This document shows, piece by piece, positions 6,928 to 42,700 of a stretch of 64,000 nt of DNA; position 1 is the first letter of the stretch, and every line of letters starts with the position of its first letter. This DNA is from an uncultured virus (IMG/VR IMGVR_UViG_3300028920_001041). Lineage: Duplodnaviria > Heunggongvirae > Uroviricota > Caudoviricetes. Under the pieces are notes generated by a model. The model searched no databases and was not told where the DNA came from. It saw only the letters and a program-made list of their open reading frames with translations. The stretch lies in IMG/VR virus record IMGVR_UViG_3300028920_001041; one strand, written 5' to 3'. Position numbers and translations under genes: made by a program.

Positions 6928-6929
6928 AA

Positions 6930-13772: not shown

Positions 13773-14835
13773 CTGATATACCTTTAAAATATAGAATGTC
13801 TGTAACCCTATCTCCATAAACTGTCTTAAATTCTTCTGTTCCCCATTTAGAGTCATATGTGGCCCATATACAATCACAGATATATAGGTAACTGCATTTA
13901 AGACAACAAAATGGTTGAATAGTGATAGAACGTAAAGTGCTTTGTATTGCATTTGTTTCTAAATCCCATTTAGACCCATTTAACTCTAATGGAGGTGGAG
14001 ATTGCCCATGCCGTATCTTCTCGGACCAATGTATTATATGTTCACTCCATTCATAAGGATCAAACATCCTCTGTTTATACATGCAAAGATACTTCTCATA
14101 TCCTTCCATAACACAAAATGGAACATACCGAACATTTATTCTCATCTTCTTATCAAGAATGTCAATTGATTCTTTAACATACGGCATACTCTCTGTAAAT
14201 GTTACCATATTATCTTGAGACGCTGTATTCTCTAGTCTAAAAGGAAGAAAGTTAAAACATTCGGGATTAATTTGATTTGCTAATTCGGCAATTTTAGGAA
14301 TGTCTTTATAATTATCTTTAGCAACCACAGTGTTGATACGAATAAATACTCCTAGCTTCATTGCATGATCAATAGCTTTTCTTATTTTTCTATATGATCC
14401 TTTAACACCAGTCATACCATCATGTACTTCTTCACAACTGCCATGTAAAGAAAATAATACTTCATTAAGTCCACAATCAATACTTTCTTCAAAAAAATTA
14501 ATATCCGACAATTCATACCCATTTGTTATTACAGCTATTCGATCAGCACCAAGTTCATCTTTCATATATGATAAAAGGAGAAACCAATAAGGTAACATTG
14601 TTGGTTCTCCTCCACTTATGTCCCAATCTTTTATACCATATGAAAATCCAGCATGTAATTGATCAGATATTTCATCCTTCATATCGACATGTTTCAAATC
14701 TTTATAGAAACAAAATTTGCATTTAATATTACATAAATATCCCGTAAACAATCTTGATCTTCTTGTCAATAAATCCATATGTTGGTGTTGTTCAATTTGA
14801 TTTCTAAAGTCTATTTTAAACGACGTCGTCATCAA
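13738..14835 (-). CDS. radical SAM protein (SPASM-like C-terminus)
   Basis: CNIKCKFC, SGGEP, ITNG, VPFC, CLKCSYLYICDC. Confidence 0.9.
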   Translation of the reverse strand: MMTTSFKIDFRNQIEQHQHMDLLTRRSRLFTGYLCNIKCKFCFYKDLKHVDMKDEISDQLHAGFSYGIKDWDISGGEPTMLPYWFLLLSYMKDELGADRIAVITNGYELSDINFFEESIDCGLNEVLFSLHGSCEEVHDGMTGVKGSYRKIRKAIDHAMKLGVFIRINTVVAKDNYKDIPKIAELANQINPECFNFLPFRLENTASQDNMVTFTESMPYVKESIDILDKKMRINVRYVPFCVMEGYEKYLCMYKQRMFDPYEWSEHIIHWSEKIRHGQSPPPLELNGSKWDLETNAIQSTLRSITIQPFCCLKCSYLYICDCIWATYDSKWGTEEFKTVYGDRVTDILYFKGISDGHLRSRASRL

Positions 14836-20525: not shown

Positions 20526-21078
20526 TATTTATTCTCTCCCCTCCGTAAAAATGTTTAAACCCGTATTCCTTAAGAATCTCTTTCATTAAAAATTCTTCAT
20601 TATTAAAAGGAAAACAATAATGAATCGGTAAGAAACCTAAATTTATCTCAAACCATTCTAACATCAATTCTGTGTCCCTCTTTATTTCTTCTACTTTTTC
20701 TTGTAACCGTGTGCTATACGTTCTAATATGAGAATATCCGTGTCCACCAATTATAAGATCCGATGATTCTCTTACTAACACTTTAATTTCATCGACAAGC
20801 ATATAATCAAACAAGTTGCCAGTTTCTTCCCATCGAGACATAGCTTCAAAGCAAGTTGGGAAAGTCTTAAATTCTCCAGTAAAATATGGTCTTTTCGGAA
20901 AATTATTGATTAACGCTCCTGACACAAATAGAATCTTTTGTGTATTAAATGTAGATAATATTGGCCAATAATAATATTGACTATATAATGCGTCATCAAA
21001 TGTTAAAATATAATTAGATAGATTAAGAGTTAAATATCGTCTCTCTATCTCATGTATCATTAAAACAGGTTTATTCAA
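20512..21078 (-). CDS. polysaccharide deacetylase (CE4/NodB-like)
   Basis: LTFDD, GGHGYSH, YCFPFN. Confidence 0.85.
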   Translation of the reverse strand: MNKPVLMIHEIERRYLTLNLSNYILTFDDALYSQYYYWPILSTFNTQKILFVSGALINNFPKRPYFTGEFKTFPTCFEAMSRWEETGNLFDYMLVDEIKVLVRESSDLIIGGHGYSHIRTYSTRLQEKVEEIKRDTELMLEWFEINLGFLPIHYCFPFNNEEFLMKEILKEYGFKHFYGGERINIEDL

Positions 21079-22045
21079 AGGAATAAGATCTCCTATTTAG
21101 AAATTCAACTATCCTTGGGCTGAGAGTACAATAAACTCTGCAATTTGCATGATAATTAAGATTCATTAAAATATCTTCATAATATTCACTACTCATTATA
21201 TCTTTATAATGATTTGTCCTTACTTGCAACTTATCTCTATTACGAAGATACATGTCAACAAAATCGCTACCATGCTCTAACCCTCTATTTCTACGGTATA
21301 TTTCGTTTTGTGTTGAGCAATTTTTCTGATTACATATCCATAACTCTCCAGCACTATTAAGATATGTTAATCCGCGCTTTCTCGATTTGCATTCGACGGG
21401 CCGTTTAACTTTATTAAATATCTTATTTAACTCAAATTTTGTTTTGTCATTATTTGAAGGCCGTTGTATAACATCATCATACATTCGACTATTTATCAAT
21501 AAGAATTCCTTACATCCTATATCTTTAGCTAATTTCTTAGCATCTTCAACTTGATGCTCATTATGCTTAAACAAAATAAATTGCCAAATAGCTTCTCCTC
21601 CACCAGCAATGAATCCCTTCATATTATTTAGGATAATGTCACCATGCTTTAAACGATATAATTTATTAGTTTCTCCTATACCATCCAATCCAAAATATAT
21701 TAACTGCATCGTTGAAGCCAAATCTTTCCACCAAGTATAATCGTAAATTGATCCATTTGTATGCATTACCAGTTTTGTGATTGGATATGTTTTATGTATT
21801 TCTTTGACTATAGACAGAAACTCGGGATGAAAAATTGATTCTCCTCTTCCTCCAATGAAATTAATATATTCTAAACTGTTATCTTCATGAATCTCTTTTA
21901 ACAATTTAAAAACAACCCATTTAGGTAAATCAATAATATCTTTAAATTCTGTCAGTACTCTATGACAAAATCTGCAATGTCCATTACATCTTGTAGTTAA
22001 TCCTATTTCTAATTTTGTTACTTCGTAAGGCTTATAATCGCTCAT
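21071..22045 (-). CDS. radical SAM protein (twitch-like C-terminus)
   Basis: CNGHCRFC, HTNG, WQFILFKHNEHQV. Confidence 0.9.
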   Translation of the reverse strand: MSDYKPYEVTKLEIGLTTRCNGHCRFCHRVLTEFKDIIDLPKWVVFKLLKEIHEDNSLEYINFIGGRGESIFHPEFLSIVKEIHKTYPITKLVMHTNGSIYDYTWWKDLASTMQLIYFGLDGIGETNKLYRLKHGDIILNNMKGFIAGGGEAIWQFILFKHNEHQVEDAKKLAKDIGCKEFLLINSRMYDDVIQRPSNNDKTKFELNKIFNKVKRPVECKSRKRGLTYLNSAGELWICNQKNCSTQNEIYRRNRGLEHGSDFVDMYLRNRDKLQVRTNHYKDIMSSEYYEDILMNLNYHANCRVYCTLSPRIVEFLNRRSYSFE

Positions 22046-22991
22046 GATCAACTATCTCATTAAAATTAGTGTGACATTTTTCTTTACATCTATAAATATG
22101 CTCATAGTGTTTACGAATTGATTTAATATATCCGCTATCTATAGCATCATTAAAAGAGTTATAGTATAAGTTATTCTCAGTTGGTTCTTTCTTATAATCT
22201 GATATATATTTTAACCCAATTAGATCTTTAATTTGACTTTTAAAGAAAAGAGTAAAATCATCAACATAGTTATCATCTCCCATAAAACAACAAGGTCTGA
22301 TTTCTCCATAAACAGTTAGATAATATTTATCACGATGGATCATATCACAAACTATATCTTTATCTGTATTTTGATTATTTAACTCAGTTCTTGTTGTATT
22401 ATAAGAAATAAGAGGTCGTTGTAATTCATCTGTGAAACATCTTGACTGTCTTGTCCAAAACCCTACACAACCTATATCTTCAGCTAACTGTTTGACATCT
22501 TCTAATTGATGTTCATTATGTTTAAAAACAATAAACTGAATTATAGCGTTTCCACCACTCATTATAAATGCATCAATATTTTGAACTATCCGATTAAAAT
22601 CTGTACCAACTCTGTGTAAACTATGAGTGTCATTTAACCCATCCACAGCAAATATAATATGATTATTCTTATGGTATCTTATTAATTCACCAAGCTCTGC
22701 CCACCAACCAAAATCATGAACGCTCCCATTAGTCTGTATGGTTACACTTGTATTGTTATGCGAAACATCTTTGATATAAGTAATTAAATCAAAAAGTCTA
22801 GGATAGAATATTGGATCTCCACGATTACCACATAACCCAATAAATTCAAATTGATCAAATGGTATTTTATGGAATATGTTAAAATCCAAATTAATTGGTT
22901 CTAAATCTACCAATTGTGATCTATTACAGAAAGGACATTTAGCGTTACATATAGTTGTTAATTCTATTTCTAGTTCCCGCCATCTTGTCAT
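22032..22991 (-). CDS. radical SAM protein (twitch-like C-terminus; paralog of the neighbour)
   Basis: CNAKCPFC, QTNG, FIVFKHNEHQL, IRPCC. Confidence 0.9.
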   Translation of the reverse strand: MTRWRELEIELTTICNAKCPFCNRSQLVDLEPINLDFNIFHKIPFDQFEFIGLCGNRGDPIFYPRLFDLITYIKDVSHNNTSVTIQTNGSVHDFGWWAELGELIRYHKNNHIIFAVDGLNDTHSLHRVGTDFNRIVQNIDAFIMSGGNAIIQFIVFKHNEHQLEDVKQLAEDIGCVGFWTRQSRCFTDELQRPLISYNTTRTELNNQNTDKDIVCDMIHRDKYYLTVYGEIRPCCFMGDDNYVDDFTLFFKSQIKDLIGLKYISDYKKEPTENNLYYNSFNDAIDSGYIKSIRKHYEHIYRCKEKCHTNFNEIVDHERL

Positions 22992-28853: not shown

Positions 28854-29768
28854 TTACACTTTCCTATAGTTTGTTGAAGTTCTATTTAATCTATCGTCAC
28901 CAGAAAATTTACTATTATAAATTACGGCATCTTGTTGGTCTCTTCGTTGGTCACAATTTTTACATATATAATTTGATTCTGCTAATGTTCCATCTATGTG
29001 CTGCTTTTTTAAATCAATAAAAGCATCAGAATTAAATATCTCTTCTAATGTTTGAGTCATAAAATCACCCAATAATAGTATTCCATTATAATCGAAACAA
29101 CACATGTTAATTGTTCCATCTACTTGAATCTGTAATGGACTATTTATTGGACGACCACAGGAATTTTTAACAATGGGTCCTTTCCTATAATCTAAAATGT
29201 CTACCCAATTATGAGGACGCCAAATCTCAAGAAGATCAACTCTATCTGAATACATTTCAATAATATTATCTATTTCATCCTTATTAATATCTATAACATC
29301 TATTGTGATAACTAGACGAGTGCATTCTTTGTTGTTAATAATATATTCAATATTCTTTAATACTTTTTTATGCTGAACAGGAGAAGCTCCCGTTATCTTA
29401 CAATAATTATCGGTATCTATCGAATGTAAGCTAATTCTAATATCTTCAACAGCTGTGTCGAATAATATATCAATTTGATTTTCATCTAATGTGCTTCCAT
29501 TAGTTAATATGTGAACGAGAAACCCTCGTTCTCTAGAATATTTAATCTTTTCAAAAATAGTAGGATCTAAAAATGCCTCACCAAATCCAGAAATAGTTGT
29601 TTCGTGTATATATGGTGCTTCAATCTTTAGTTTATCAATAATAAATCGATATATTTCCAACGACATGATCTCTTTTTTTCGAGTGAAATGTGTTGGATGT
29701 GTACAGAATTTGCAACGATAGTTACACTTTGTACAAGTCTCTATCCTTGCTTCGTTAGTTATTAGCAT
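28854..29768 (-). CDS. radical SAM protein with SPASM/twitch domain
   Basis: CNYRCKFC, GFGEA, CGRP...DGTINMCCFD...CKNC. Confidence 0.9.
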   Translation of the reverse strand: MLITNEARIETCTKCNYRCKFCTHPTHFTRKKEIMSLEIYRFIIDKLKIEAPYIHETTISGFGEAFLDPTIFEKIKYSRERGFLVHILTNGSTLDENQIDILFDTAVEDIRISLHSIDTDNYCKITGASPVQHKKVLKNIEYIINNKECTRLVITIDVIDINKDEIDNIIEMYSDRVDLLEIWRPHNWVDILDYRKGPIVKNSCGRPINSPLQIQVDGTINMCCFDYNGILLLGDFMTQTLEEIFNSDAFIDLKKQHIDGTLAESNYICKNCDQRRDQQDAVIYNSKFSGDDRLNRTSTNYRKV

Positions 29769-30514
29769 TATTTCATAACTCCACAAGTTCTTAATATACT
29801 TATTAATTCAGTAATTGGTAATTGTGTATCAGCATCACATAATGCATTATCAGGATCTGTGTGACATTCTATGAACAACCCATCAGACCCACAAGCAATA
29901 GAAGATTTTGCTAAATCATAAGCATATGTATAATTGTTCCAATATTTATTGGGATGAGTGATATCAGTCACAACTTTAAACTTATAAGGGGTTTTCCCCT
30001 TCATTACTCTGATGAATCTAGGATCCATAATTAAGTAATCGAATCCAAAACTGGTTCCTCTATCTCCTATTATTAATTCAGCGTCTTTATTTAATTCAAA
30101 TACTTTAGTAACTATCTGCCCTATCTTAAAAGGATTAAGATGCTGTGGCTTTTTAATATGAATCGGAAGATCTCTTTTTACTGCCGCTTCAATTATAGAT
30201 GTTTGCATTGCTAAGAATGCAGGAATTTGAATCAAATCAACTCTATATGCATAATGATTAATTTGATCAACACTATGAAAATCTGTTGTTATCTTAATAT
30301 TGAATGATGTGCTGATATCTTCTAATGCCGCTAATCCATCTTCAAATCCTGGTCCATAATAATTTTCTAATTTAGTTCTATTATCCTTAATACAAGATGC
30401 TTTAAAATAAAAATCTATGTCTTTAATGTTTTTAATAACATCATTAATTTTCTTAGCTGTTATGAACAGCTTCTCAGGATCTTCTATTACACATGGACCA
30501 CAAATTAAAATCAT
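29768..30514 (-). CDS. kdsA: Kdo-8-phosphate synthase-like enzyme
   Basis: ICGPCVIE, FKAS..KDNRT, QIPAFL, IKKPQ, RGTSFG, DITH, FIECH..PDNALCD. Confidence 0.88.
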   Translation of the reverse strand: MILICGPCVIEDPEKLFITAKKINDVIKNIKDIDFYFKASCIKDNRTKLENYYGPGFEDGLAALEDISTSFNIKITTDFHSVDQINHYAYRVDLIQIPAFLAMQTSIIEAAVKRDLPIHIKKPQHLNPFKIGQIVTKVFELNKDAELIIGDRGTSFGFDYLIMDPRFIRVMKGKTPYKFKVVTDITHPNKYWNNYTYAYDLAKSSIACGSDGLFIECHTDPDNALCDADTQLPITELISILRTCGVMK

Positions 30515-31410
30515 ATTACTTCTCCAACAACCCAATCAATAAAAGTGCTGTATTTTGATCTATCTAAAATATACTCAAAATTATTATCGAACACATTCTT
30601 ATAAAAATTTTTAAATAATGACGAATTAAAAGGAATATTGTCATTATGAATATATGCCCCCGGTATAAATCTATCATGAACCTTTACAAAATCTTTAATA
30701 TCATCTATCCCATCACAATGCAGCCTTCCTTCTAATACAGGGGATATTATCTCTTTATTATTCTGAATTGCTTCTATTAAAGAATACGGCAAAGGATCGA
30801 TATAGTTTCTAGATTGTGGATAAACGTAATGAGTTATATTTGAGAAAAATACTTGTTGATCAAAAGTATGATGATGATTTAAAACATATTTAAACCTTTT
30901 ACTAAAATCATGTCTAGTATTTTGCCCCATCGTGTATACGTCAACATAAGAATATAAATCATTTAACATTCCTAAAAAATAATCAAACGAATCCCTTGTT
31001 ATATAGTTTCTTATATAAAATCCCAAACAAGGTCTAGTGACCTCTGATTGTTTCACTATAAAATCTGTAATCATAGGAATGAAATTCTTAATACTGTCAC
31101 ATTCATGAGTATAATAAAAACCATTATTACATGATTTATTTCCGAAGTAGTTATATTCATTTCGAACATATATTAAATAATCAATATCAATTAAAGAAAC
31201 AATATTAACAGGGAACGAATAATTACTCGGAACCTGAGTAACAAATATAAGCTTTTTGTATTTCTCATTTAACTCTCTTAAATTAACTACATCTTTTGAT
31301 TCTAGATGATCTAGATATTCCGAGTGTTCATTAGCCATTCTTTCTGAAACTGTAAATGCTCCACGTTTAAGATTTCCGTAGGCTACAGATATCAATAAGT
31401 ATTTCTTCAT
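30511..31410 (-). CDS. putative glycosyltransferase-like protein
   Basis: KRGAFTV N-terminal loop; DPLPYSLIEAIQNNKEI GT-B-like motif. Confidence 0.5.
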   Translation of the reverse strand: MKKYLLISVAYGNLKRGAFTVSERMANEHSEYLDHLESKDVVNLRELNEKYKKLIFVTQVPSNYSFPVNIVSLIDIDYLIYVRNEYNYFGNKSCNNGFYYTHECDSIKNFIPMITDFIVKQSEVTRPCLGFYIRNYITRDSFDYFLGMLNDLYSYVDVYTMGQNTRHDFSKRFKYVLNHHHTFDQQVFFSNITHYVYPQSRNYIDPLPYSLIEAIQNNKEIISPVLEGRLHCDGIDDIKDFVKVHDRFIPGAYIHNDNIPFNSSLFKNFYKNVFDNNFEYILDRSKYSTFIDWVVGEVI

Positions 31411-31427
31411 AATTATTAACAATAACG

Positions 31428-31470: not shown

Positions 31471-32064
31471 TTAACCAAACTGTGAGTAGAAACTGTCTGT
31501 CATTGATCTAACTTGTTCAACAGAGGTCGCAGTATCAAGATCTCTCGAAAACTGTAACCACTGTTTGTACATAAAATTACCTTCAGATAATTTATCTAAT
31601 AGTGCCAAATATTCTTCCAAAGAAGAAATCAGATCTGAATCCCCAGTGTTTACGATTTCTAAATACTTTTCTTCCCTATTTGAATCTGAAATAATATACC
31701 CAGCAGCACCAAGTTTATTATTTAAAAGTTGAAAAGAAAAGAATTCAAACATACTTATATATCCAACTCTATAAGCTACAAAATGTTTTGATCGAATTAT
31801 AGCACCTTGTCTTTCGGCAGCAATCGGATCCGGAATATCTTGAATAATTAAATCTCTAAATGTTAGAGGGTAATCGATACCTTTCGGGAAAAATACTTCT
31901 TTCCCGTTCTCCATAGCATCCTCGATCTGTTTCTTTAAATCATAGCTAGGAATCTCATAATATTTAACACCACTATGTTCAAAAATCTGACCTTCATCCC
32001 CCTCTAAAACAGAAATTACTCTGTAGTTGATACCAACATCAGCTACACCTGCTAGAATCTTCAT
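31471..32064 (-). CDS. hypothetical protein (possible fibre-assembly accessory protein)
   Basis: GGAGG RBS; last gene of the Cys-repeat operon; function is a positional guess. Confidence 0.7.
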   Translation of the reverse strand: MKILAGVADVGINYRVISVLEGDEGQIFEHSGVKYYEIPSYDLKKQIEDAMENGKEVFFPKGIDYPLTFRDLIIQDIPDPIAAERQGAIIRSKHFVAYRVGYISMFEFFSFQLLNNKLGAAGYIISDSNREEKYLEIVNTGDSDLISSLEEYLALLDKLSEGNFMYKQWLQFSRDLDTATSVEQVRSMTDSFYSQFG

Positions 32065-32078
32065 ATTTTCCTCCAAAA

Positions 32079-32591
32079 TTAATTATCTTTTAACATTGAA
32101 TCATTATTACATTGACAAGTACAATGATAATCACAATTGCATGTACATGAGTAATTACATTGACAAGTACATGAATAGTCACACTGACAAGTACATTGAT
32201 AATCACAATTGCATGTACATGAGTAATTACAATCACATACACATACACCAATATTTTCTTTATTGATAGGTTCTTTAGGATCTACATCATATTTACTTAA
32301 TAGTAATTCTATTTTCTCTAACAATTCAGGAAGTAATTCAACCATTTCAATTATTTCCTGTAGAGCTTTTATAAGCAATGGAGAGAATTGTCCGTAATCT
32401 ACTTTAAAATAATTTGATTGTTGATCTTTTGAAACTATCGAATATTTATCAGGACTAAATATCTTTGTTAAGTCTTGGGCTATTACACCAAAGAAAATTC
32501 TTTCATCTTCAATATGATCAGGATGTTTTTCTTTATCATATCGAAATTTAACTGCTTTAAACCGTTTAACTAATTCTAAATATTCTCCCAT
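32079..32591 (-). CDS. stand-alone body of a peptidase-S74 (tail-fibre chaperone) domain plus 6 Cys repeats
   Basis: KAVKFRY, FGVIAQDL, VDYGQFSPLLIKALQE; lacks the SDxxxK start; C-terminal CxCxCxY repeats. Confidence 0.8.
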   Translation of the reverse strand: MGEYLELVKRFKAVKFRYDKEKHPDHIEDERIFFGVIAQDLTKIFSPDKYSIVSKDQQSNYFKVDYGQFSPLLIKALQEIIEMVELLPELLEKIELLLSKYDVDPKEPINKENIGVCVCDCNYSCTCNCDYQCTCQCDYSCTCQCNYSCTCNCDYHCTCQCNNDSMLKDN

Positions 32592-33353
32592 TTAAAGATA
32601 TTCAACCTCAAGTTTAAGATTTTCATCTGAATAATTACAATCACATGTGCAATTGTAATCACAATCACAGGTACAATAGTTACAATCACAGGTACAATAG
32701 TTACAATCACAAGTACACGGATAATTACAGTTACATGTGCATGCATAGTTGCATTGACAAGTACATGCATAGTTGCATTGACAAGTACATGCATAATTAC
32801 ACTTACAAGTACAGGTATAATCACATTGGCAACTACAACCATAATTGCAATTACATACACATTCAGATTCTAGAAAATTCATCCTATCTCTTAACGCTAC
32901 AATAGGTTCATCTCTAATCTGATCACCATCTTCAAGAACTGAATTAGCTAAATCACCTGGATATGCCCAACCAGGAGATAACGTCGCAATTGCAGACCGT
33001 AACTCTAGAATCGTCTCATTATTAATAACCCCACCTGCAGAAACCGCTGGTGGTGGAACACCAGGTTCACCACGACGACCTGCTTCATTAAGAATAGCAG
33101 TTCTTAATTCGTTAATATGAACAGCTTTAATTTGAAATTGTGTAGTAAGACCAGGATCAGTCCATACTGTAGGCGTAACAGGATCTATTCTTCCAGTGTG
33201 AGTAGGACAAACATCACTTCCCCCAACATGGCCAGGGCAAGATGTAGTAACTGAATGTGCTGTACAAGCAATTGTAGCTGCGTGTCCGCTACAAGATGGT
33301 AAATTTGTGTGACCTGTGCAAGTTGTAGTATTTGAATGTGCCGTACAAGCCAT
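32592..33353 (-). CDS. Cys-rich repeat protein (putative fibre or rSAM substrate)
   Basis: CxxH N-terminal repeats, WTD...IKAVHINELRTAI, 10 CxCxC(N/D)Y repeats, ends YSDENLKLEVEYL. Confidence 0.88.
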   Translation of the reverse strand: MACTAHSNTTTCTGHTNLPSCSGHAATIACTAHSVTTSCPGHVGGSDVCPTHTGRIDPVTPTVWTDPGLTTQFQIKAVHINELRTAILNEAGRRGEPGVPPPAVSAGGVINNETILELRSAIATLSPGWAYPGDLANSVLEDGDQIRDEPIVALRDRMNFLESECVCNCNYGCSCQCDYTCTCKCNYACTCQCNYACTCQCNYACTCNCNYPCTCDCNYCTCDCNYCTCDCDYNCTCDCNYSDENLKLEVEYL

Positions 33354-33374
33354 AATTTTCCTCCAAGAAATTTA

Positions 33375-34259
33375 TTATAGATATTCAATATCTCTTTTGA
33401 CTCTTTCATCTGAGTAATTACAGTTACATACACAAGGATAGTTGCAATTACAGGTACACGGATAGTTACAGTTACAGGTGCATGCATAGTTACAATTACA
33501 GGTACATGCGTAATTACATTGACAGGTACAACCATAGTTGCATTGACAGGTACATGCGTAGTTACAATTACAAGTACATGCGTAGTTGCATTGACAGGTA
33601 CATGCGTAATTACATTGACAAGTGCAACCATAGTTGCATTGACAGGTACAACCATAGTTGCATTGACAGGTACATGCGTAATTACATTGACATACACAGA
33701 CTTGTTCAAAAGTATTAAGCCCTGTTCGTAAACTTTCTAGTTGCTCATTTTGTATTACATCACCTTCCTCTAAATTCACAAGATCTAATGACGAATGTGC
33801 AGACCAAGGGCCAAACAGATTCAATGCTGCTCTGAATGATATAACAGTTGCATTATCAACTGCACTACCAACAGAAACTGCTGCAGGGATAGTCGCCCCG
33901 GCAGATCTTCTTGTATTTTCATTAGATATTGCAGTTCTTAGCTCATTAATATGTTGAGCTTTAATAGCAACACCAGTAAGAGCAGAATCTGTCCAAGTAG
34001 TAGGCGTTATAGGGGCTACAAATCCAGTACAACCACTCGCAGGATCAGTTGCTGAATGTGTTGCACAAGTTGTTGTGTTTGCATGACCAGAACAATATGT
34101 CGTTGCTGAATGTGCTGCACATGATACTGTGTTTGAATGTGATACGCAAGCTAATGTATTTGAATGTGCTGTACATGGACCCGCAGCATGTCCGTAACAT
34201 GATACTGTGTTTGAATGTGATACGCAAGCTAATGTATTTGAATGCGCCGTACAAGCCAT
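33375..34259 (-). CDS. Cys-rich repeat protein (paralog)
   Basis: CxxH N-terminal repeats, WTD...IKAQHINELRTAI, 12 CxCxCNY repeats, ends YSDERVKRDIEYL. Confidence 0.88.
   Translation of the reverse strand: MACTAHSNTLACVSHSNTVSCYGHAAGPCTAHSNTLACVSHSNTVSCAAHSATTYCSGHANTTTCATHSATDPASGCTGFVAPITPTTWTDSALTGVAIKAQHINELRTAISNENTRRSAGATIPAAVSVGSAVDNATVISFRAALNLFGPWSAHSSLDLVNLEEGDVIQNEQLESLRTGLNTFEQVCVCQCNYACTCQCNYGCTCQCNYGCTCQCNYACTCQCNYACTCNCNYACTCQCNYGCTCQCNYACTCNCNYACTCNCNYPCTCNCNYPCVCNCNYSDERVKRDIEYL
33414..33698. repeat. 24-bp coding tandem repeat (Cys octapeptide)
   Basis: units such as CATAGTTGCATTGACAGGTACAAC; related arrays at about 32630-32863 and 32105-32246. Confidence 0.9.
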
Positions 34260-34282
34260 AATTTTCCTCCAAAGATTTAATT

Positions 34283-35434
34283 CTATACAATCTGTTTTAA
34301 TGCTTTAGTAATTTTACCATTAATTTTATAAAATCTACAAAGTCTCGGTTGAGTAGCGTAATCTCTCCACTTATCAATATAAGTGTCTTTATTACTAGAT
34401 TCATACTTAACTGGGTTACATCGTAGACAATAATCTGCTTCACAATCCATACATTCAATAGGCTGATATCCAAAATTAGTATTATGCAATGTATGGGAAG
34501 CACTTAATTTATCTATAAAATCTTCATCTTTTAAATTGGAAACAATATGATCATCAACTTTATCGTCATAAACACTTCCATGACATTTATAAATTTTGCC
34601 ACCTACCCCGACACAAACCATATCTCTTCCGGCACAACAAAGAGCTTTATTAGGATTAAACCACGCAAAGAAGAACTGATTATTGTTCTTCTTACGAAAG
34701 TCTATCTCTTTTGCTGCGATTTCAGCAAGGACATTTTCTAGATCAACACAATATTCATCTATTTCTGCATCACTATATTTATCTAAGTGATAATAATCGA
34801 TTGTTGGAAAATAATTGCCAGAATGAAAGAATTGCTGACCTAGATATTGTTCATAAATATCTCTTATATCCTCATAAGCAGATAGCAAGTACTTAAAAGC
34901 ATCAGGAGGTATAGTTGACTTGACTGTACTTGGAATTCTATTATTATACACCTTTAAAATATTATTTCTAACTGTGTTTGATGTTAACACTCCATCTTTT
35001 CTGGTTCGATATATGTCATGAACAGGTATCCCATCATAAGACATCTGAATACAAAACTTAGGGTGTCCACCTTCAATAAATTGATCTTTAAGTCTAATAA
35101 GAGTATCCCAAATACCATCTAAATAATACCCATTACTAAAGATAAAAAATTTAACTCTAGGATTATTTTCATAATAGCTTATAATATTATTTACAAGCTT
35201 GTGGGCTAATGTGGGTTCGCCACCCCAAAGACCAATATTTAATGCATCATATTTTTCGTTAAAAAAATTCGAATTTAATAATTCGTCAGCTTTAGTCTTA
35301 AATAATTCAATGTCTTTAAAAAATGTATTCCTGAAATGTCCATCTTCAAAACAATATTTACATCCAAAGTTACAAGAATCTGTTAGTGTTAAATCTATGT
35401 TATACATACGAACTTGATTGAAAGTTTTACTCAT
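34283..35434 (-). CDS. radical SAM/SPASM peptide-maturase-like enzyme
   Basis: CNFGCKYC, WGGEP, SYDG, CCAG...KIYKCH...CMDC...CLRC...C. Confidence 0.9.
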   Translation of the reverse strand: MSKTFNQVRMYNIDLTLTDSCNFGCKYCFEDGHFRNTFFKDIELFKTKADELLNSNFFNEKYDALNIGLWGGEPTLAHKLVNNIISYYENNPRVKFFIFSNGYYLDGIWDTLIRLKDQFIEGGHPKFCIQMSYDGIPVHDIYRTRKDGVLTSNTVRNNILKVYNNRIPSTVKSTIPPDAFKYLLSAYEDIRDIYEQYLGQQFFHSGNYFPTIDYYHLDKYSDAEIDEYCVDLENVLAEIAAKEIDFRKKNNNQFFFAWFNPNKALCCAGRDMVCVGVGGKIYKCHGSVYDDKVDDHIVSNLKDEDFIDKLSASHTLHNTNFGYQPIECMDCEADYCLRCNPVKYESSNKDTYIDKWRDYATQPRLCRFYKINGKITKALKQIV

Positions 35435-35448
35435 TTCATCTCCACTTT

Positions 35449-36456
35449 CTAAAATTGACTGAACTTCACTTTTGTCTCTTTATTTGCATAAGTTATACCA
35501 GTTGTCGGAGATAAATACGCATTACCAACGCTTGTTGATTTATCACACCGTCCACAAGCAACGCATGTTACACCACAAAAAGGAATATTATATAGTAAAT
35601 ACACATGTTCTAAGTATGGTCGTAATTGATTTCGCAATACCTCAGCATAACCTGGGGGACCAACAGAATCTAAATCTTTATGAGCAAAACTAAGAGCAAT
35701 TTTATCACAAGTAGGCCATCTTTCACATATTTCGATCATATCTTCTACAACTTTATCATAGTTCCCAGCATGAACTGTATAACTCATACTAAAGAATATA
35801 TAATGTTTAACAAGATTATCAACTGCTCGTTCAACATATGGTTTAGAACTTGCACCATTAGGAAACTTTCTACGATAATGTCCTGACCCATCATAACTTA
35901 CTTCGATACTAAGATATACATTCTTATTCTCAACTGATGCCTTTAATTCTTTATATTGTAGAATTAATCGTTCATCTAGGAACAATAATGCGTTAGTGGT
36001 TATAGGAATTGCCCAACCTCCACCTTTAGGTAAATCAGCTGCTTTTCTAACTAAATATTCATAAAGATCAAATTTTAACAAAGGTTCTCCACCCATTACA
36101 ACAATACATGAATTTAGATTTCCCTCTCTTTCGTGAATTTCATGAAGAAAAGAATCTAACATCTCTGTAGAACAATTAGCATGATCTGGAAGACCTTCGC
36201 GACTATCTTCTTCATAACAATATTCGCAACGAAGATTACAATTAGTATTTAAATAAACAACATTGGTTCTTGTCGTTCCTTGTGCATCATTAATCTGTTT
36301 AACTAATTTTTGTTCACCATATATTGTATTATCTTGATCACACCCTTGCCCATCTTTGCATGACTGACAAGAATCGCATACTTGATTTTTTTCACCTAAT
36401 GTCTCTTTAATATCAGTCATAAATATATTTATATCTTCCTTAGTTACATGACTCAT
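35449..36456 (-). CDS. radical SAM protein (maturase-like core, Cys-rich N-terminus, no full SPASM)
   Basis: CNLRCEYC, MGGEP, TTNA, SYDG; N-terminal CDSCQSC...C. Confidence 0.9.
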   Translation of the reverse strand: MSHVTKEDINIFMTDIKETLGEKNQVCDSCQSCKDGQGCDQDNTIYGEQKLVKQINDAQGTTRTNVVYLNTNCNLRCEYCYEEDSREGLPDHANCSTEMLDSFLHEIHEREGNLNSCIVVMGGEPLLKFDLYEYLVRKAADLPKGGGWAIPITTNALLFLDERLILQYKELKASVENKNVYLSIEVSYDGSGHYRRKFPNGASSKPYVERAVDNLVKHYIFFSMSYTVHAGNYDKVVEDMIEICERWPTCDKIALSFAHKDLDSVGPPGYAEVLRNQLRPYLEHVYLLYNIPFCGVTCVACGRCDKSTSVGNAYLSPTTGITYANKETKVKFSQF

Positions 36457-36459
36457 TTA

Positions 36460-36984
36460 TCACTTCCCCATTTTAGACCGTATTTTTGAGACAAGATCCT
36501 TAACATCACTTTCTATCTCATTAACTGATGTTGGATTACCAACACCAATGCCCTGCCCTGATGCATTTTTACCATGAATAGGACAGTCACAATCTACACC
36601 TTGACCCATAGCATTCTTACCATGAATAGGGCAATTCTCATCACTTGAAGTATTACTACCCTGTAATCCGCCAGCGCCATGCCCTCGACATTCTTGAGGA
36701 TCAGCATTTATATGACCTACACAAATCTGGTCTTTGTTTACATCCGCTTCTGACGCCTCACTAGCAGTACTAAATGATAGAACCTTACTACCACTAGGTG
36801 TTGGCGCCATATTATCTAGCGAACAAGATTGTTCTTCTTTCGGTTGACAACATTCAACAATTTTAAGAAGTTTATCAGATATATACAAACATAGATCACT
36901 AAGACTATTATCAAATTCTTTTATTTCTTGTGATACTTTTAACATTCCTTGCGCCGAATTAAAGATTTTAGCTTGGTCCATCAT
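36460..36984 (-). CDS. Cys/His/Gly-rich protein with CPIHGKNA repeat
   Basis: two CPIHGKNAxGQG repeats; CxGH motifs. Confidence 0.75.
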   Translation of the reverse strand: MMDQAKIFNSAQGMLKVSQEIKEFDNSLSDLCLYISDKLLKIVECCQPKEEQSCSLDNMAPTPSGSKVLSFSTASEASEADVNKDQICVGHINADPQECRGHGAGGLQGSNTSSDENCPIHGKNAMGQGVDCDCPIHGKNASGQGIGVGNPTSVNEIESDVKDLVSKIRSKMGK

Positions 36985-36993
36985 TCGCCTCCA

Positions 36994-38112
36994 TTAGCCA
37001 ACATTTTGAATAGATCCTTTTACCATTTCTTGGAATAATTCATTGTCTTTTAATTCATGAACAATTCTCATCGATTGTTTATATAAGATATGTAATAATT
37101 CACAAACACCATCTACTGGTTCACAATAGTTAGCATTTGATTCATCAGTTTTTAATTGCTGAAAAGTACATCCAGCGTTACAATATTGATATAATTCACA
37201 TGTTTGACATTTATCATAGACTCGAGGATTAGCAACTTGTGGCGATTGCATAATATTAACAGTGTCACCAAATTCGATATTATTTATTGAATCATATAAT
37301 GGATTAATATCATTTGATCCAAATCTTGCACATGGATACACTAAACCATCTGGCATAAAACCAGCACCATTAACTCCAGCAAAACACCCAAATGGTCTTT
37401 TACCATAAGTTGTTCCAAAAAGAAGATCTAAAATATATAATTGGAAGAATCCAATAGTGGTTCTTATACCACTTTTAATATATTTTATCATTTGGGCTGC
37501 CAGTTTTTCTGCCTCTATTTCAAATCTCTTTACATCATCTTCTGTCCAGATATTATCTCGAACAATTGAGAAATCTGGACTTGGTAAATTAAATTCCTCA
37601 ACGAACCATTTATAGTTATCAACTAAAGTATCGATACTCTCAGGAGATACCATCACTTTACACCCTCCTTGTCCACTAAATCTAGACTTAAGAGGCTCTT
37701 CTAAATAAAGACTTAGACTAGAACTTCCGTCTTTAAGAGGTCTATTATGTTGATTCCATAGTCCGTCAAAAGATAGCGAAATCGCCAAATTATTTTTTTG
37801 AAAGTAATCCCACTTGTCACCATCCACAAACTCTAAACCATTAGTCATTGCTATAATAAAAGTACATCTAGGATCTTTTTTAAAGATTGGAACAATATAT
37901 TCAATTAATTTCCAATTTAATAGTGGTTCTCCACCAAATAAAGCTGCGTGATAATCATGTCGATTATATTTTTTCATCATTTTCGGCAGAGTATTATAAT
38001 AATGCGCATCAAAAACCTCTCGAGTCATATCTTTTGGCTTCTGATTAATATAACAATATGTACACGCCATATTACATCGTTCTGTAAGTACTAATTGAAA
38101 CTCAAATGACAT
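36994..38112 (-). CDS. radical SAM/SPASM peptide-maturase-like enzyme
   Basis: CNMACTYC, FGGEP, SFDG, GCFAG...GLVYPC...CQTC...CNAGC...C. Confidence 0.92.
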   Translation of the reverse strand: MSFEFQLVLTERCNMACTYCYINQKPKDMTREVFDAHYYNTLPKMMKKYNRHDYHAALFGGEPLLNWKLIEYIVPIFKKDPRCTFIIAMTNGLEFVDGDKWDYFQKNNLAISLSFDGLWNQHNRPLKDGSSSLSLYLEEPLKSRFSGQGGCKVMVSPESIDTLVDNYKWFVEEFNLPSPDFSIVRDNIWTEDDVKRFEIEAEKLAAQMIKYIKSGIRTTIGFFQLYILDLLFGTTYGKRPFGCFAGVNGAGFMPDGLVYPCARFGSNDINPLYDSINNIEFGDTVNIMQSPQVANPRVYDKCQTCELYQYCNAGCTFQQLKTDESNANYCEPVDGVCELLHILYKQSMRIVHELKDNELFQEMVKGSIQNVG

Positions 38113-38123: not shown

Positions 38124-38726
38124 TTATTTGATTACACATTCGACAAGTTTTTCAGAGGGCGAATCATTTGTTTCTAATGACATACCAATCTTATCAAGTT
38201 TTTCATTCATGTTTTCAATCGCTCTTGCGCAGCCACCACCAGCAGATACAATTGGTTGGCCTTTTCTAATCTGTCCCACAATTCTTACCGGAACACGACC
38301 TGTTAAACCAACTGCTTCCCCTTCTCCTGCAAAATTCATAAGATACGCAGGATTAGGAGAAAATACACCAACTACATTCTCAGCTAATTCATCATCGCAA
38401 ATCTGTAAATCTGCATCATCATCATCACAGACGCGTAATACTGTGCCTTCTGGAACAGTACCTTCTTTTATACTAAATCTTTCCGCTAAGTCGGCATATT
38501 TAGCGTAACTCGCAGTTCCCACAAAACTAACACTATAAACTGCTTTATACCTTTGACCGCTTCTTCCAAGGTCAATAGTGTTATCCGTATTTGGGGACAT
38601 TTCATCTGAATCGACAAAAATTCCACCTGAATGAAGATTTGAATAATATCCATCATTCCATCTTTTAGCAGGAGTACCAATGCTACCTTCACCAGTAGCT
38701 CGAGGAACTATATTTCTCGTAGCCAT
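38124..38726 (-). CDS. short fibre-type protein with peptidase-G2-like autoprocessing domain
   Basis: YADLAERF...GVFSPNPAYLMN...GRVPVRIVG. Confidence 0.75.
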   Translation of the reverse strand: MATRNIVPRATGEGSIGTPAKRWNDGYYSNLHSGGIFVDSDEMSPNTDNTIDLGRSGQRYKAVYSVSFVGTASYAKYADLAERFSIKEGTVPEGTVLRVCDDDDADLQICDDELAENVVGVFSPNPAYLMNFAGEGEAVGLTGRVPVRIVGQIRKGQPIVSAGGGCARAIENMNEKLDKIGMSLETNDSPSEKLVECVIK

Positions 38727-38751
38727 TCGATTAACCTCCAAAAATTATAAT

Positions 38752-39726
38752 TTATGCAGCCTGTAAAGTTAAATCATCATTACCATCAAGTTCAAAGAAC
38801 ACATCCGGATCTGATGATGGGGAAGCAAGAGGCGTTAAATCACCGCTGCCATCATCTTCAAACAAACCATTTATAATTGGGTCTTCTTCACTAGGAGCTA
38901 CATTGCCAGAAGCATCAGTAACCCAACCATATCCAATTGTTGAGGGACCAACACCACCAACGGCGTCATTAATAAACTGAACAAAATCGCTCCATGCTAT
39001 TTCACTGTATCTTTTAGTCACTGGGTTGTAAAGAATAAATTGATCAGATGATTGTACTTGATCTGTTATTGGAGCAGCATCTGTAAGAACTTCTCTCCAT
39101 TTAGCATCTACTCCCGGAGAACACTCAGTACAAACAAAAGTTTTATCAGTGGCTCTATTAATCCATTGCTGTCCTATAAAATGTCCAGCATCCCTATTAT
39201 CAGATGGTAAAGGATCTCTAGACTCAGTAGAAACTGTATTAACAATGGGAAACAGTTTTGATCCGCCGTCTATCCATGTACCAGAAAGCCAATGACCAGC
39301 AGGTTCGTCCCACTTTAAATAAGCGGATGCTAAATCTCCTCGACGAACTCTTAGCTGACCATAAGGGTCTGGAACTCCTGATATATTATTCTTATTTACT
39401 GTAATCGTACCACCATCAAAAGAAGCATTACCAATAGCATTTAAAACAAAATTATTAGCATCTACAGTGAAATTACCATCACCCAAATCAAAATGAGCAG
39501 CTTGGTCGGATCCATCGCCGAAGACAATTCCTCCGGCGAGTAGATCCGAAGATAGCACGATGACCCATTTGCCAGTGTCCCTATCTATTAATGTGAATAT
39601 TCTACCAGTAGTTTTGTTTACCCATATCGTACCTTCAACAAAACCTTCAGACTTGTTTTGGGCAGGAGTTGGGTCAGATAATTCAACAACAACTCTTGGG
39701 AAACTGATAACAGAAAGGTCAGACAT
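38752..39726 (-). CDS. putative tail-fibre/structural protein
   Basis: GTIWVN and GQQWIN repeats; RRGDLASAYLKWDE motif shared with neighbouring fibre genes. Confidence 0.65.
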   Translation of the reverse strand: MSDLSVISFPRVVVELSDPTPAQNKSEGFVEGTIWVNKTTGRIFTLIDRDTGKWVIVLSSDLLAGGIVFGDGSDQAAHFDLGDGNFTVDANNFVLNAIGNASFDGGTITVNKNNISGVPDPYGQLRVRRGDLASAYLKWDEPAGHWLSGTWIDGGSKLFPIVNTVSTESRDPLPSDNRDAGHFIGQQWINRATDKTFVCTECSPGVDAKWREVLTDAAPITDQVQSSDQFILYNPVTKRYSEIAWSDFVQFINDAVGGVGPSTIGYGWVTDASGNVAPSEEDPIINGLFEDDGSGDLTPLASPSSDPDVFFELDGNDDLTLQAA

Positions 39727-39740
39727 ACTTTCCTCCAATT

Positions 39741-42700
39741 TTACTTGATTATACACATTACGAGTTTTTCTTCATTCTCAAGATTTTCTTCAATAGACTG
39801 TCCTATCTTGTAAAGAAGTTCACTCTCTTTTCTAATTGCACGAGCAGCACCTTTTCCCGCAGAAACGATTACTTGTCCTTTACCAATAGGTCCTATAATT
39901 CTAACAGGAACCTTACCAGTAAGACCCACAACTACACCATCTGATTCATCATTCATCAAATAGCCAGGATCTGCAGAACAAACACCAGCGACGTTTTTAC
40001 AGAGTTCAGTACCACACTCCTCAACTTCGTATTCTCCAGAATCACAAGCCTTCATGATTGTTCCTGGATATACGTCATCTTCAGCACAGGTATATTTTTC
40101 GGCAAGATCAGCGTAACGAGCAGATGTTGCTTGCCCTGATACAATACCACTGGTCCAAATATTATTTCCTAATGCAGCAGTTGGACTACCGTTTTGTGCC
40201 CATACAAGCTGATGACCTACTGCTCTTAAGGATGCACTATACTGATATGCTGCACCATAGAGATTACCAAAATCGGCACCTGAGGCACTATTCCTAAAAG
40301 ACGTACCCATAGACCAAATATGCTGAGTCTTAGTTTGGTCATAAGTACCAAATATACCTTCATCTCTATTAGCATCTGGAACAACAATAGCAGAAACTAA
40401 GTAATCATCTTCTCCAGATTTCAAAAGATTAGAGGCATTATATCCATCAACAGTGTCCGCGTCAAGACCATTTCCTGCCCCCTCATCTGCAACTGTGAGA
40501 ACTCTATTGTTAAAAACTAGAACTTCATCTGCAACACCACCGGATGCGGTAATTCTTAAAGGATAAGGAGTCGTACCCGTATTTGGATACCGAATAGTGA
40601 ACGCCTCACCATCAGCAGTTAGATGCCAATCACCAGCAACATCATCTGATTCACTAAGTATAAATTGTGGTGCAATATTATTAATAGCAATATTTCCAAT
40701 AGTGATTTGATGACTTACATCTTTTCTCAAAATATTGGCAGCTTCAACACCATCAACAGTATCTGCATCTAGACCTGATCCAGTACCATCATTACCAGCG
40801 TGCCAAATTTCATTACCTTTCCACTCGAAGAAGTCTTTATCAATATAGACTAACTCTCTAGCGGCATCATGCCTAACACTCTCATCACATGTGATCAATA
40901 AAGCCCCATCCATTGTCGGGTTACCATCCACCAGATTCATTAAACGAGTATCATTAGGTTGATGTGCCCCTAGCGTCGGAGTGCCTGTACGATCACCGCC
41001 ATCCTGAAATGATAAACCTTCTCCTATTTGTGACATATATAATGGTCTTGAATTACCTGCTATCGATAAAGTACCATTGAATGTATCATCAACATTACTT
41101 CTCAAATAAGCACTACCATTAACGCCATCAAGCAACTCAGAATCTGCAGCTTTCGCAGTGGTTCCTAATTTACCTGCAAGACCATTGTCAACGTAAGTTT
41201 TAGCAGCAAGTTGACTTGGATAATCACTATCGGAAGCTGATCCTCCACCTAACCCTGTATCGGTGTTTAGATTATTCAGATTGGCATAGTTATTGACAAT
41301 TTCTGTTTCAGTGTAATAACGATTATCATGATTATGACTATCATTCGCAACAGTCGCAACAATATTAACATTCGCAGAACCGTCAAACGATACAGAACCT
41401 GTAACATCACCTGACAAGCTAATATCTCTAGCATTGTTAAGTTTTGCTGCATTTTCCGCAACACCCTTAAACGTCTGGGCATAGATTTCAGCGAAACGAT
41501 GTGTAGCATCACCGATATCATATGTAATATCTGCGCTCGGTGTAGTATTAGCGTTTCTTCTCAAAAATCTTGTATCTTGCTCTGTTTCTGTATAATATCG
41601 AGTATCATGAGTATGACTATCGTTTACAACAGCGGCAGTTATACCAGCGTCACCTGTACCATCAAAAGAAACTGTACCTGTGACATCCCCTGACAATGTA
41701 ATATTACGAGCGGTTTCTAGCGCTGTCGCCGTAGCGGCATTGCCATCTAATTCGCCATGAATAGTCGTGCCATGTATATCAGAGAATTTAGCACCTGCTG
41801 AACCAAGACTATGCGTATCATCCGCATCTGGTAAAGCATCAGCATTACGACGTAAATATACAGAATCATGATTATGAACACTTAATTCGAGATCGGTCAT
41901 AGATCCTGTAATACCTGCTTGCCATTTATCTGTTGCTTCATTATATATAAGTCTAGCATTCGGCAAATTGCCGCGTTCAATTTCAATACCACCAGACCCT
42001 GCAGTTATACCATCCCCAGTTTGATTCTTATTAAGAACAATTTCATTATCCTCAACCTGAAGAGTTGCAGTATCAACAGTGGTTGTCTCACCATTAACAT
42101 AAAGATTTCCTTGAACAGTTAAATCTCCACTACTTTCCACTTCCCCTGCTGTGATTTTACCAGCAGCATCTAGAGTGACGTTATTTGCAATAATTGTAAA
42201 ATCATTAGCAGCGCCACAATTGACAGCAATATCATCATTACCATCACCCAAAGTAGCTTGTTCGCCAAAAGTAACTGGCGTCTGTACATCAAGAACACCT
42301 TTAATACTAATAGTGTTATTATCATCATAACCGAGATCAACATCTCCATCTACTCTAAGACTCTGATCAAATCTGACCTCAGCAGTACCCGTTGTTCGAA
42401 TTGAATCTACAGTTGCTACACCACTTGCTTCAAGATCTTTACAAGCGATAACACCTTGTCCGACATTTCCTTGTGCATCAAAGGAAAATTTATTGTTAAC
42501 CGTATCAAAAGATATCGGATAGTTTTGCCCGCCAACTTGAAACTGAAATACTGGTCTAACCTCAATTTCTCCACCACCTGGATTATATGTAAACGGCTTC
42601 AATGTAATATTCGAAGCTTGAATAGTAGGTACTTCAGCTGCCGAAGTCGGAGAAGCTCCAGCATCAATCGCTAGAGATGTACCTTCAAAGGTAGCATTAT

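Follow-up and report, generated by a model that had tools for sequence, protein, structure and literature searches.

We analyzed a minus-strand gene cassette in a 64,000-nt stretch of DNA from an uncultured virus of the class Caudoviricetes (IMG/VR record IMGVR_UViG_3300028920_001041); this whole stretch is referred to here as the window. The cassette encodes three radical S-adenosylmethionine (rSAM) enzymes, rSAM_A, rSAM_B and rSAM_C, followed by three proteins with short cysteine repeats, R1, R2 and R3 (coordinates in Table 1). A first-pass annotation, made by a model from the sequence alone, had placed it immediately downstream of tail fiber genes, and the 1,204-aa protein encoded upstream indeed matched PHROG long-tail-fiber families.

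Strict copies of the motif C.C.C[ND]Y number 12 in R1, where they are uniformly spaced by 8 residues, 10 in R2, with a spacing of 8 or 7, and 5 in R3, which has one additional degenerate unit (CTCQCNN). In 20,000 residue shuffles of each of the three proteins, the motif was found at most once per protein. The copy numbers given by the first-pass annotation were therefore correct for R1 (12) and R2 (10), and slightly generous for R3 (6). R1 and R2 also carry the N-terminal CxxH units (n = 8 and n = 6, respectively; period of ∼9) and the WTD...IKAxHINELR domain that had been noted in both proteins, and this domain is conserved in relatives. A protein collection contained 324 relatives of R1 at E ≤ 1e-3 with the same architecture, many of them from contigs of 65 to 315 kb, and comparison of R1 with solved structures by sequence gave no relative (E up to 1). 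The repeat grammar, compiled from 995 units of 128 proteins, has N, D or Q at position 4 in 924 units, N or D at position 6 in 915 and Y at position 7 in 934; units were spaced by 8 residues in 510 cases and by 7 in 335. Since positions 4 and 6 are both of the N/D/Q type, each unit contains two C-x-x-[N/D/Q] motifs.

All three enzymes scored above the Pfam cut-off for PF04055 (29.5 bits) and contain the CxxxCxxC cluster motif, as CNMACTYC at residue 13 of rSAM_A, CNLRCEYC at residue 73 of rSAM_B and CNFGCKYC at residue 21 of rSAM_C. Their C-terminal cysteines bore out the claim that rSAM_A has a SPASM-type cluster and that rSAM_B lacks a full SPASM domain, and were in line with the SPASM-type cluster claimed for rSAM_C, with 7, 4 and 7 invariant residues in A, B and C, respectively. 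In rSAM_A these are C243, C261, C302, C305, C311, C315 and C337 (19 orthologue sequences), and this enzyme passed the TIGR04085 cut-off (36.4 bits versus 27). In rSAM_C, C266, C284, C328, C331, C336, C339 and C366 are invariant (18 orthologues) with CxxCx4CxxC spacing; no PF13186 match was obtained, and TIGR04085 was not among the best 25 of 36 families. The invariant cysteines of rSAM_B (15 orthologues) are C73, C77 and C80 of the cluster motif and only four auxiliary ones, C294, C298, C301 and C304, and no SPASM match was found.

The best NCBIfam match of all three enzymes was the PapB ranthipeptide maturase family NF047865, with 135.4, 50.0 and 75.8 bits for A, B and C (E values of 1e-39, 2.5e-13 and 3.6e-21), followed by SCIFF, nif11, QhpD, anSME and other peptide-maturase families. 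These scores lie well below the curated PapB cut-off of 340 bits. The same was true for TIGR04115, the CXXX-repeat rSAM system (58.8, 34.9 and 38.1 bits versus 350), and, for rSAM_C, for the CrpC type TIGR04463 (29.9 bits versus 525). Judged by their profile scores, A, B and C are thus members of no named family.

The closest solved relative of rSAM_A is CteB (5wgg, E 2.1e-15), and the alignment covers residues 103 to 419 of 5wgg_A; similarly, residues 7 to 325 of rSAM_A correspond to positions 101 to 426 of the 451 in the SCIFF profile TIGR03974. Positions 1 to 100 of SCIFF/CteB are the leader-binding RiPP (ribosomally made, post-translationally modified peptide) recognition element (RRE). 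Our enzymes have no such N-terminal part before the rSAM core, and in A and C the cluster motif already lies at residues 13 and 21, respectively, which leaves no space for it. The lack of a leader-binding part fits a leaderless protein substrate.

Pairing of the enzymes with repeat genes

A scan of viral contigs yielded 38 related loci (given L numbers), in which open reading frames (ORFs) were called and searched with the window proteins. An ORF of the A, B or C type lay within 6 kb of the repeat gene in 32 of these 38 loci, and all three types were present in 23. Near-identical loci (L004-7, L010/11, L017/18, L020/21, L022/23, L024/25, L026/27 and L035/36) were merged by eye, which changed the first figure to 24 of 28. 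One of the misses, L008, is a contig that begins inside the repeat gene. Repeat genes are thus usually accompanied by rSAM genes, and the first-pass proposal withstood this neighborhood check. The usual gene order is a fiber gene with a p205-like end, rSAM_A, a small gene, rSAM_B, rSAM_C, one to four R genes, an S74 remainder gene (described below), p201 and p303, and the order A-B-C-R is maintained among orthologues of just 26 to 60% identity.

The reverse survey, a scan with an rSAM_A profile, gave 75 loci with 56 distinct sequences, and a single-protein query gave none. A repeat gene lies 0.13 to 3.2 kb away in 35 of the 42 distinct close orthologues (E ≤ 1e-60). The other seven lack one and comprise L053, L098, L079 (with 553 nt of flank), three Campylobacter phage records and L096, which has a degenerate R homologue. 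Among weaker rSAM_A matches, a repeat gene was found in 1 of 14. The two surveys share contigs and are therefore not independent. When one genome from each of 185,579 prokaryote species was scanned for the repeat pattern, 51 stretches were returned and a single one was confirmed, a 24.8-kb contig of a metagenome-assembled genome that carries the whole cassette, so that the repeat family is essentially confined to phages. A nucleotide search of the region and a tblastn search of R1 against 50,697 phage records gave no match, the low-complexity filter probably masking the repeats.

In five loci (L034, L035, L037, L039 and L040) all three rSAM types occur together with R proteins whose cysteines lie only in the repeats, which marks the repeats, rather than the CxxH units, as the common candidate target. 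A specific tie between rSAM_B and the N-terminal CxxH repeats was also considered and ruled out, since some loci with all three enzymes encode R proteins that lack N-terminal cysteines altogether.

The small ORFs that follow rSAM_A fall into two helical types recurring across many loci. The first resembles p174 of the window (36460-36984) and has a variable Cys/His-rich middle; the second carries ...EEARKGKAKVDS.YV...GHLF.Y..DY.... It is possible that this small helical protein is an enzyme partner or substrate-recognition subunit that takes the place of the leader-binding part. Two ORFs directly after rSAM_A (L039:6179-6520 and L079:11122-11466) end in ...GSCGCGTSVSF and ...SSCGCGVSVNF, endings that look like those of A-type (IscA/ErpA) iron-sulfur carriers.

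A Peptidase_S74 chaperone divided between genes

The C-terminal ends of R1 and R2, SDERVKRDIEYL and SDENLKLEVEYL, form a 12-residue tag with an SDxxLK start that equals the first 12 residues of the Peptidase_S74 chaperone. The rest of this domain, minus the first 15 profile positions, is found in residues 1 to 100 of R3, a feature that the first-pass annotation had not noticed: residues 4 to 45 match positions 16 to 53 of the 58 in PF13884 (25.7 bits; cut-off of 22), and R3 also matches PHROG families at the C-termini of tail spikes and fibers. Since the profile match in R3 begins at position 16, the tag would supply the start of the domain. For R1 and R2, the Peptidase_S74 domain is thus not complete in one chain with the fiber. 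The stop codon of R2 directly abuts the ATG of R3, and the conserved serine is present in both tagged proteins (S283 in R1 and S242 in R2).

The same division recurs elsewhere. Separate genes for an 85- to 100-aa remainder follow tag-ending R genes in L008, L010/11, L016, L019, L030, L034, L037, L038 and L118, and in L034 a single remainder gene accompanies four R paralogues. These genes have their own start codons in varied frames and at varied spacings, several with GGAG or AAGG upstream. Read-through or frameshifting that would join R2 to R3 was considered and ruled out on these grounds, the junctions at the nine loci varying in frame and spacing. Fused forms with a full S74 domain occur in L035/36, L039, L040 and one of the three R proteins of L037. 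Longer fused relatives are rare (four proteins of 516 to 2000 aa at E ≤ 1e-3); in three of them (P0123, P0124 and P0125) the C-terminal part after the repeats starts with CFLAGTPVLAYDP and looks like a Hint/intein-type self-cleaving module that replaces S74. Among the nine S74-remainder genes aligned, R3 is the only one fused to Cys repeats of its own, its eight homologues being separate genes. The end of R3, ...CNNDSMLKDN, looks like a decayed SDxxLK tag, as if a remainder gene had been joined to the end of another repeat gene. The repeat gene of L012 (9995-10750) has 16 units and neither CxxH units nor the central domain, and a weak S74-like ORF lies upstream of it at 6574-7113.

S74 domains trimerize fibers and spikes from the C-terminus and then cleave themselves. 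The arrangement described here shares with the S74 chaperone of endosialidases and other tail spikes and fibers (PF13884) the position at the C-terminal end of the fiber and the SDxxLK start, and differs from it in being split into a 12-residue tag and a separate remainder gene that serves up to four paralogues. Because of the chaperone tag or full S74 domain at their C-termini, the R proteins are best read, by analogy, as trimeric fiber-type parts whose mature end is the Cys block, and it is likely from their sequences that they are trimeric parts of the virion. R1, R2 and the repeat part of R3 would then be the fiber-type proteins, and the N-terminal 100 residues of R3 would act in trans, trimerizing R1 and R2 from the C-terminus via the tag, which would be the first strand of the chaperone, with a probable cut at the serine of ...NY-S-D.

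A complex model of three copies of R1 (residues 165 to 294) with three copies of R3 (residues 1 to 105) was consistent with this arrangement, scoring 0.61 compared to 0.00 for the best of three controls; of 157 solved complexes 116 attain the mark for such scores, as do 2 of 215 mismatched pairs. Contact agreement between runs was at least 56% and partner pLDDT at least 71, and the modeled R1-R3 interface is the tag (R1 281/282 to 294). As the model concerns the split of a domain with solved structures, this pass may reflect likeness only.

A Cys-rich C-terminal core adjoining rSAM/SPASM maturases is also the classic layout of RiPP loci, and the repeat proteins could accordingly be precursors of released antimicrobial or signal peptides, with their N-terminal and central parts as leader. 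We regard this as very improbable, given the S74 tag or full S74 domain at the C-termini of the proteins, the position of the cassette directly behind tail fiber genes, the lack of a leader-binding part in the enzymes and the absence of a protease or exporter gene among the cassette genes scanned (Pfam, NCBIfam and PHROG).

Proposed crosslinking of the repeat block

The first-pass proposal that rSAM enzymes modify a Cys-repeat fiber-type protein agreed, as an inference, with every computational test that we ran, namely the synteny in 32 of 38 loci, the kinship with thioether maturases and the S74 tag. We consider the genes to form a conserved phage morphogenesis cassette for enzymatic crosslinking of a virion fiber, with a probability of roughly 60%, and on sequence grounds it is somewhat likely that A, B and C modify the repeats. 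The (C-T-C-[N/Q/D]-C-[N/D]-Y-x)n block would fold into a β-solenoid-like rod, on which A, B and C, encoded in the same operon, would act post-translationally. The likeliest bond would be a thioether of the ranthionine type, from the cysteine sulfur to a side-chain carbon of the conserved Asn, Asp or Gln; by analogy with known systems we put forward this bond tentatively, at somewhat less than even odds. Such crosslinks could be installed while the fiber is made in the cytoplasm, whose reducing conditions would keep disulfides from forming, as these staples would need no oxidizing environment. It is a guess that the three enzymes would each serve one of the three cysteine positions.

Several observations weigh against this proposal. 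The window contains 12 to 13 rSAM genes, which makes adjacency here a weak argument by itself; because the window is so rich in these genes, the weight of the pairing rests on the A-B-C-R order elsewhere. L012 is a true exception and the clearest one, its R gene having no rSAM gene in the 10 kb to each side, and none is present in the 9.9 kb upstream in L022/23 and L026/27 (with less than 1.6 kb of downstream sequence). Conversely, the rSAM_A orthologues of L053 and L098 have no R gene in 7 to 9.8 kb downstream, and in the Campylobacter phages discussed below rSAM_A lies ∼32 kb from the R-like gene. None of A, B and C reaches a curated family cut-off, so that enzyme chemistry cannot be transferred from a named family. 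As neither a leader peptide in the substrate nor a leader-binding N-terminal part in the enzymes was found, recognition would have to be unlike that of known systems. The tag-bearing loci L003, L013 and L029 have no S74 remainder gene within 10 kb. Finally, the repeat block was modeled with low confidence (pLDDT of 61 to 70 alone, as short strands, and 51 to 54 in the complex), giving no geometric support for contacts between cysteines and acceptors.

Structure comparison bears on a different account, in which the Cys repeats form a rod that binds metal or Fe-S clusters, or that is braced by disulfides after lysis, and the rSAM enzymes have another role, for instance in modifying sugars, cofactors or a different protein of the surrounding gene island. 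In the AlphaFold2 model of R2, the helical central domain was confident (pLDDT of 84 to 97) and the CxxH part was not (<50), and Foldseek gave no match to the PDB at E ≤ 0.001 (best 0.56). With a wider structural aligner, the R2 repeats resembled the RTX β-roll 7usl_C (Z 9.5, rmsd 2.4, 78 residues), and also antifreeze β-helices (Z 6.5 to 7.1) and bactofilin. Some insect antifreeze β-helices are braced by disulfide ladders, the N-terminal CxxH repeats look like metal ligands, the island contains sugar-nucleotide enzymes and nine more rSAM genes, and the R gene of L012 has no rSAM neighbors. However, a Z score of 9.5 exceeds by little the best Z of 7 to 8 that is typical of models without a true match, the A-B-C-R order at 26 to 60% identity is far tighter than co-residence in an island, and A, B and C are closest to rSAM families that modify peptides and proteins rather than sugars or cofactors. 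We therefore judge this account to be unlikely.

Crosslinking of a Cys-repeat protein by rSAM enzymes has precedents. PapB/PapA (freyrasin) and CteB/CteA (SCIFF) likewise combine an rSAM/SPASM enzyme with an adjoining Cys-repeat substrate. The scores here are, however, far under the respective cut-offs (135.4 versus 340 bits for PapB and 82.6 versus 425 for SCIFF), the alignments start only at position 101 to 103, with the N-terminal part absent, and the substrate is a fiber-type protein of 170 to 294 aa without a leader, accompanied by three enzymes instead of one. The motif of PapA is C-x3-D, compared to C-x-x-[N/D/Q] here. Closer in this respect is the SPASM enzyme CrpC of Methanococcus voltae, which was shown to install ranthionine-type crosslinks on the Cys-repeat protein CrpA, in an article that takes C-X-X-Q/D as a hint of thioether formation by rSAM enzymes (Dieter et al. 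2026; PMC13692751). As in our case, the thioether target is a Cys-repeat protein rather than a short peptide, with C-X-X-Q/D motifs and a predicted β-helix; the differences are that CrpA is an archaeal cellular protein with a leader-like N-terminus and a 17-residue repeat and that CrpC contains an RRE (PMC13692751). The word "phage" does not occur in that article, and the passages available to us point to QhpD/QhpC, where a protein subunit carries Cys-Asp/Glu thioethers, as another precedent in a protein (PMC13692751). QhpD, which acts in quinohemoprotein amine dehydrogenase, is also an rSAM/SPASM enzyme, and its family TIGR03906 matched rSAM_A (E 1.8e-17), albeit with 63.2 bits versus a cut-off of 453; QhpC is an enzyme subunit rather than a structural repeat, and that system uses a leader and an RRE.

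The enzymes could also act on the repeats by other chemistry, such as formylglycine formation (anSME-like), sactionine bonds to the Cys α-carbon, C-C or ether crosslinks of tyrosine, or methylation. The anSME family TIGR03942 matched A (E 3.2e-16) and C (E 8.5e-12), with 4k36 at E 3.9e-5, the cyclophane-forming families YhhB and FxsB were matched as well, tyrosine occupies position 7 in 934 of 995 units, and three different enzymes per repeat suggest more than one reaction. For A and C, PapB, SCIFF and QhpD nevertheless outscore the anSME and cyclophane families, a ranking that is only a lead, since all scores are below cut-off. We consider such other chemistry quite unlikely.

The crosslinking proposal can be extended, more speculatively and with considerable doubt, to a phage structural class: a trimeric β-solenoid fiber in which each 7- to 8-residue C-T-C-N-C-N-Y unit might be stapled by up to three rSAM bonds, one enzyme per cysteine and possibly between chains, and covalently locked without oxygen, with a single split S74 chaperone acting in trans to fold several such fibers. 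The rSAM sets of Campylobacter phages would be accounted for as well.

To date, rSAM thioether chemistry is known from small antibiotic-like peptides and, since 2026, from one archaeal protein. If our proposal is correct, phages would have a new way of stabilizing their particles that operates in a reducing cytoplasm and needs no oxygen, and that would be suited to hosts in the gut, in sediment and under microaerobic conditions. A strict short repeat with several dedicated enzymes is attractive for enzymology and for engineered crosslinked protein rods, and the divided S74 chaperone suggests, from sequence and models, that this self-cleaving folding domain can function across chains, a point relevant to the expression of recombinant fibers. 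That rSAM enzymes can crosslink Cys-repeat proteins is already known and is here placed in a phage structural context; new here are a split S74 chaperone that would act in trans, counts of synteny in both directions, maps of the conserved cysteines in A, B and C and the repeat grammar. Our literature search, which did not extend to subscription journals, found no description of rSAM enzymes acting on phage fibers or of a split S74 chaperone, and the term "radical SAM" is absent from a jumbo-phage survey (PMC7824862).

Neighboring genes, the wider island and Campylobacter phages

Table 1. Cassette, flanking and island genes of the window (sizes in amino acids)
Feature	Position	Strand	Match or remark
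Long tail fiber protein, 1204 aa	39741..43355	-	PHROG phrog_11011 (long tail fiber distal subunit), E 4.5e-39, and other tail fiber families
334-aa protein between fiber genes	38752..39756	-	No Pfam or PHROG match
p205, fiber-type, 205 aa, Peptidase_G2-like chaperone end	38124..38741	-	PHROG tail fiber phrog_19602, E 2.9e-12
rSAM_A, radical SAM/SPASM enzyme, 372 aa	36994..38112	-	PF04055, 38.3 bits
p174, small, helical ends, Cys/His-rich low-complexity middle	36460..36984	-	No family above cut-off (Pfam, NCBIfam, PHROG)
rSAM_B, radical SAM enzyme, 335 aa, C-terminal CxxxCxxCxxC, no full SPASM	35449..36456	-	PF04055, 46.5 bits
rSAM_C, radical SAM enzyme, SPASM-like 7-Cys pattern, 383 aa	34283..35434	-	PF04055, 30.3 bits
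R1, fiber-type, 294 aa: 8 CxxH, helical central domain, 12 CxCxCNYx, 12-residue S74 tag	33375..34259	-	
R2, R1 paralogue, 253 aa: 6 CxxH, central domain, 10 repeat units, tag	32592..33353	-	
R3: Peptidase_S74 remainder (1-100) and 5+1 repeat units (117-163)	32079..32591	-	PF13884, 25.7 bits
p201, conserved cassette member	31471..32076	-	phrog_25260, E 2.8e-16
p303, conserved cassette member	30511..31422	-	No Pfam, NCBIfam or PHROG match
Island rSAM with SPASM	28854-29786	-	PF04055 above cut-off
Island rSAM	22032-22991	-	PF04055 above cut-off
Island rSAM	21071-22051	-	PF04055 above cut-off
Island rSAM, 489 aa, nearest B12-binding rSAM methyltransferase types	16300-17769	-	PF04055 above cut-off
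Island rSAM, 489 aa, nearest B12-binding rSAM methyltransferase types	14816-16285	-	PF04055 above cut-off
Island rSAM, HxsC-like	13738-14835	-	PF04055 above cut-off
Island rSAM	12816-13952	-	PF04055 above cut-off
Island rSAM	11773-12819	-	PF04055 above cut-off
Island rSAM	10878-11939	-	PF04055 above cut-off
Island rSAM, sub-threshold	10057-10890	-	PF04055, 26.8 versus 29.5 bits

Upstream of the enzymes, the 1,204-aa fiber protein and p205 have in common a C-terminal end that resembles a self-cleaving chaperone, p205 scoring just under the cut-off of PF11962 (24.9 versus 25 bits). A p205-like ORF is present in 17 of the 38 related loci, and the relatives of p205 are the C-termini of longer fibers immediately upstream of the cassette. 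Weak relatives of the 334-aa protein lie upstream of the cassette in L012 and L030, and weak relatives of p174 occur in L003 and L009. Downstream of the repeat genes, a p201 homologue is found in most loci, and in Campylobacter phage CP220 it adjoins a baseplate hub gene; p303 homologues follow p201 in L003, L008, L010/11, L017/18, L020/21, L033 and L118. The model of p201 was confident (pLDDT of 91) and had no PDB match at E ≤ 0.001. Its BFVD matches were all uncharacterized phage proteins, the best of them at E 7.8e-4; entries labeled "tail assembly chaperone" and DUF4376 came in at E 0.06 to 0.15, and in the Atlas it matched "tail fiber assembly protein" and DUF4376 clusters with a score of 0.82, which is within the chance range. 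A function of p201 as a tail fiber assembly protein is, on the basis of this model, a lead.

The cassette forms the head of a 28-kb minus-strand island with 12 rSAM genes above the PF04055 cut-off and one just below it. The nine further rSAM genes above cut-off downstream of the cassette had gone unnoticed in the first-pass annotation. The rSAM genes of the island are interleaved with genes of the KDO8P-synthase-like, transaldolase-like, cytidylyltransferase and GDP-mannose-dehydratase types. At the end of the strand block (7539-10050, minus strand) lie genes for a histidine kinase of PAS-HisKA-HATPase architecture (604 aa) and for a protein with a DnaJ domain (234 aa), which are unusual cargo for a phage.

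Orthologues of rSAM_A with 36 to 37% identity were found in 15 records of 11 Campylobacter phages of the genus Firehammervirus (group II), a group that includes CP220, CPt10, CP21 and IBB_35. These 11 phages also encode a 534-aa protein with the same segment before the repeats and 6 to 7 CxCxCNY units, which is the "21 bp repeat" gene CPT_0180/CPt10_1891 of an earlier genome study (PMC2853527). An rSAM_C-like gene lies 2.3 kb downstream of this gene in CPt10. In the parts of that study available to us, 11 to 12 rSAM genes per genome were called "highly unusual," with a metabolic role suggested, and the repeat gene was mentioned only as the sole intragenic "21 bp repeat," with no link to the rSAM genes (Timms et al. 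2010; PMC2853527). The number of rSAM genes per genome is as in the window, the difference being that they are dispersed in the Campylobacter phages. Crosslinking of a fiber, if correct, would give a testable function to these 11 to 12 genes, unexplained since 2010 (PMC2853527), in phages under development for biocontrol. For one member of the group, IBB_35, 38 virion proteins are listed in the portion of the report that we consulted (PMC3322345). CP220 and CP21 (L091:17839-18207 and L092:17831-19265) additionally contain ORFs of 123, 172 and 310 aa that consist almost entirely of C-x-x-C-x-x repeats (27, 47 and 76 Cys). They lie ∼7 kb downstream of the rSAM_A orthologue and may be a second kind of Cys-repeat candidate substrate.

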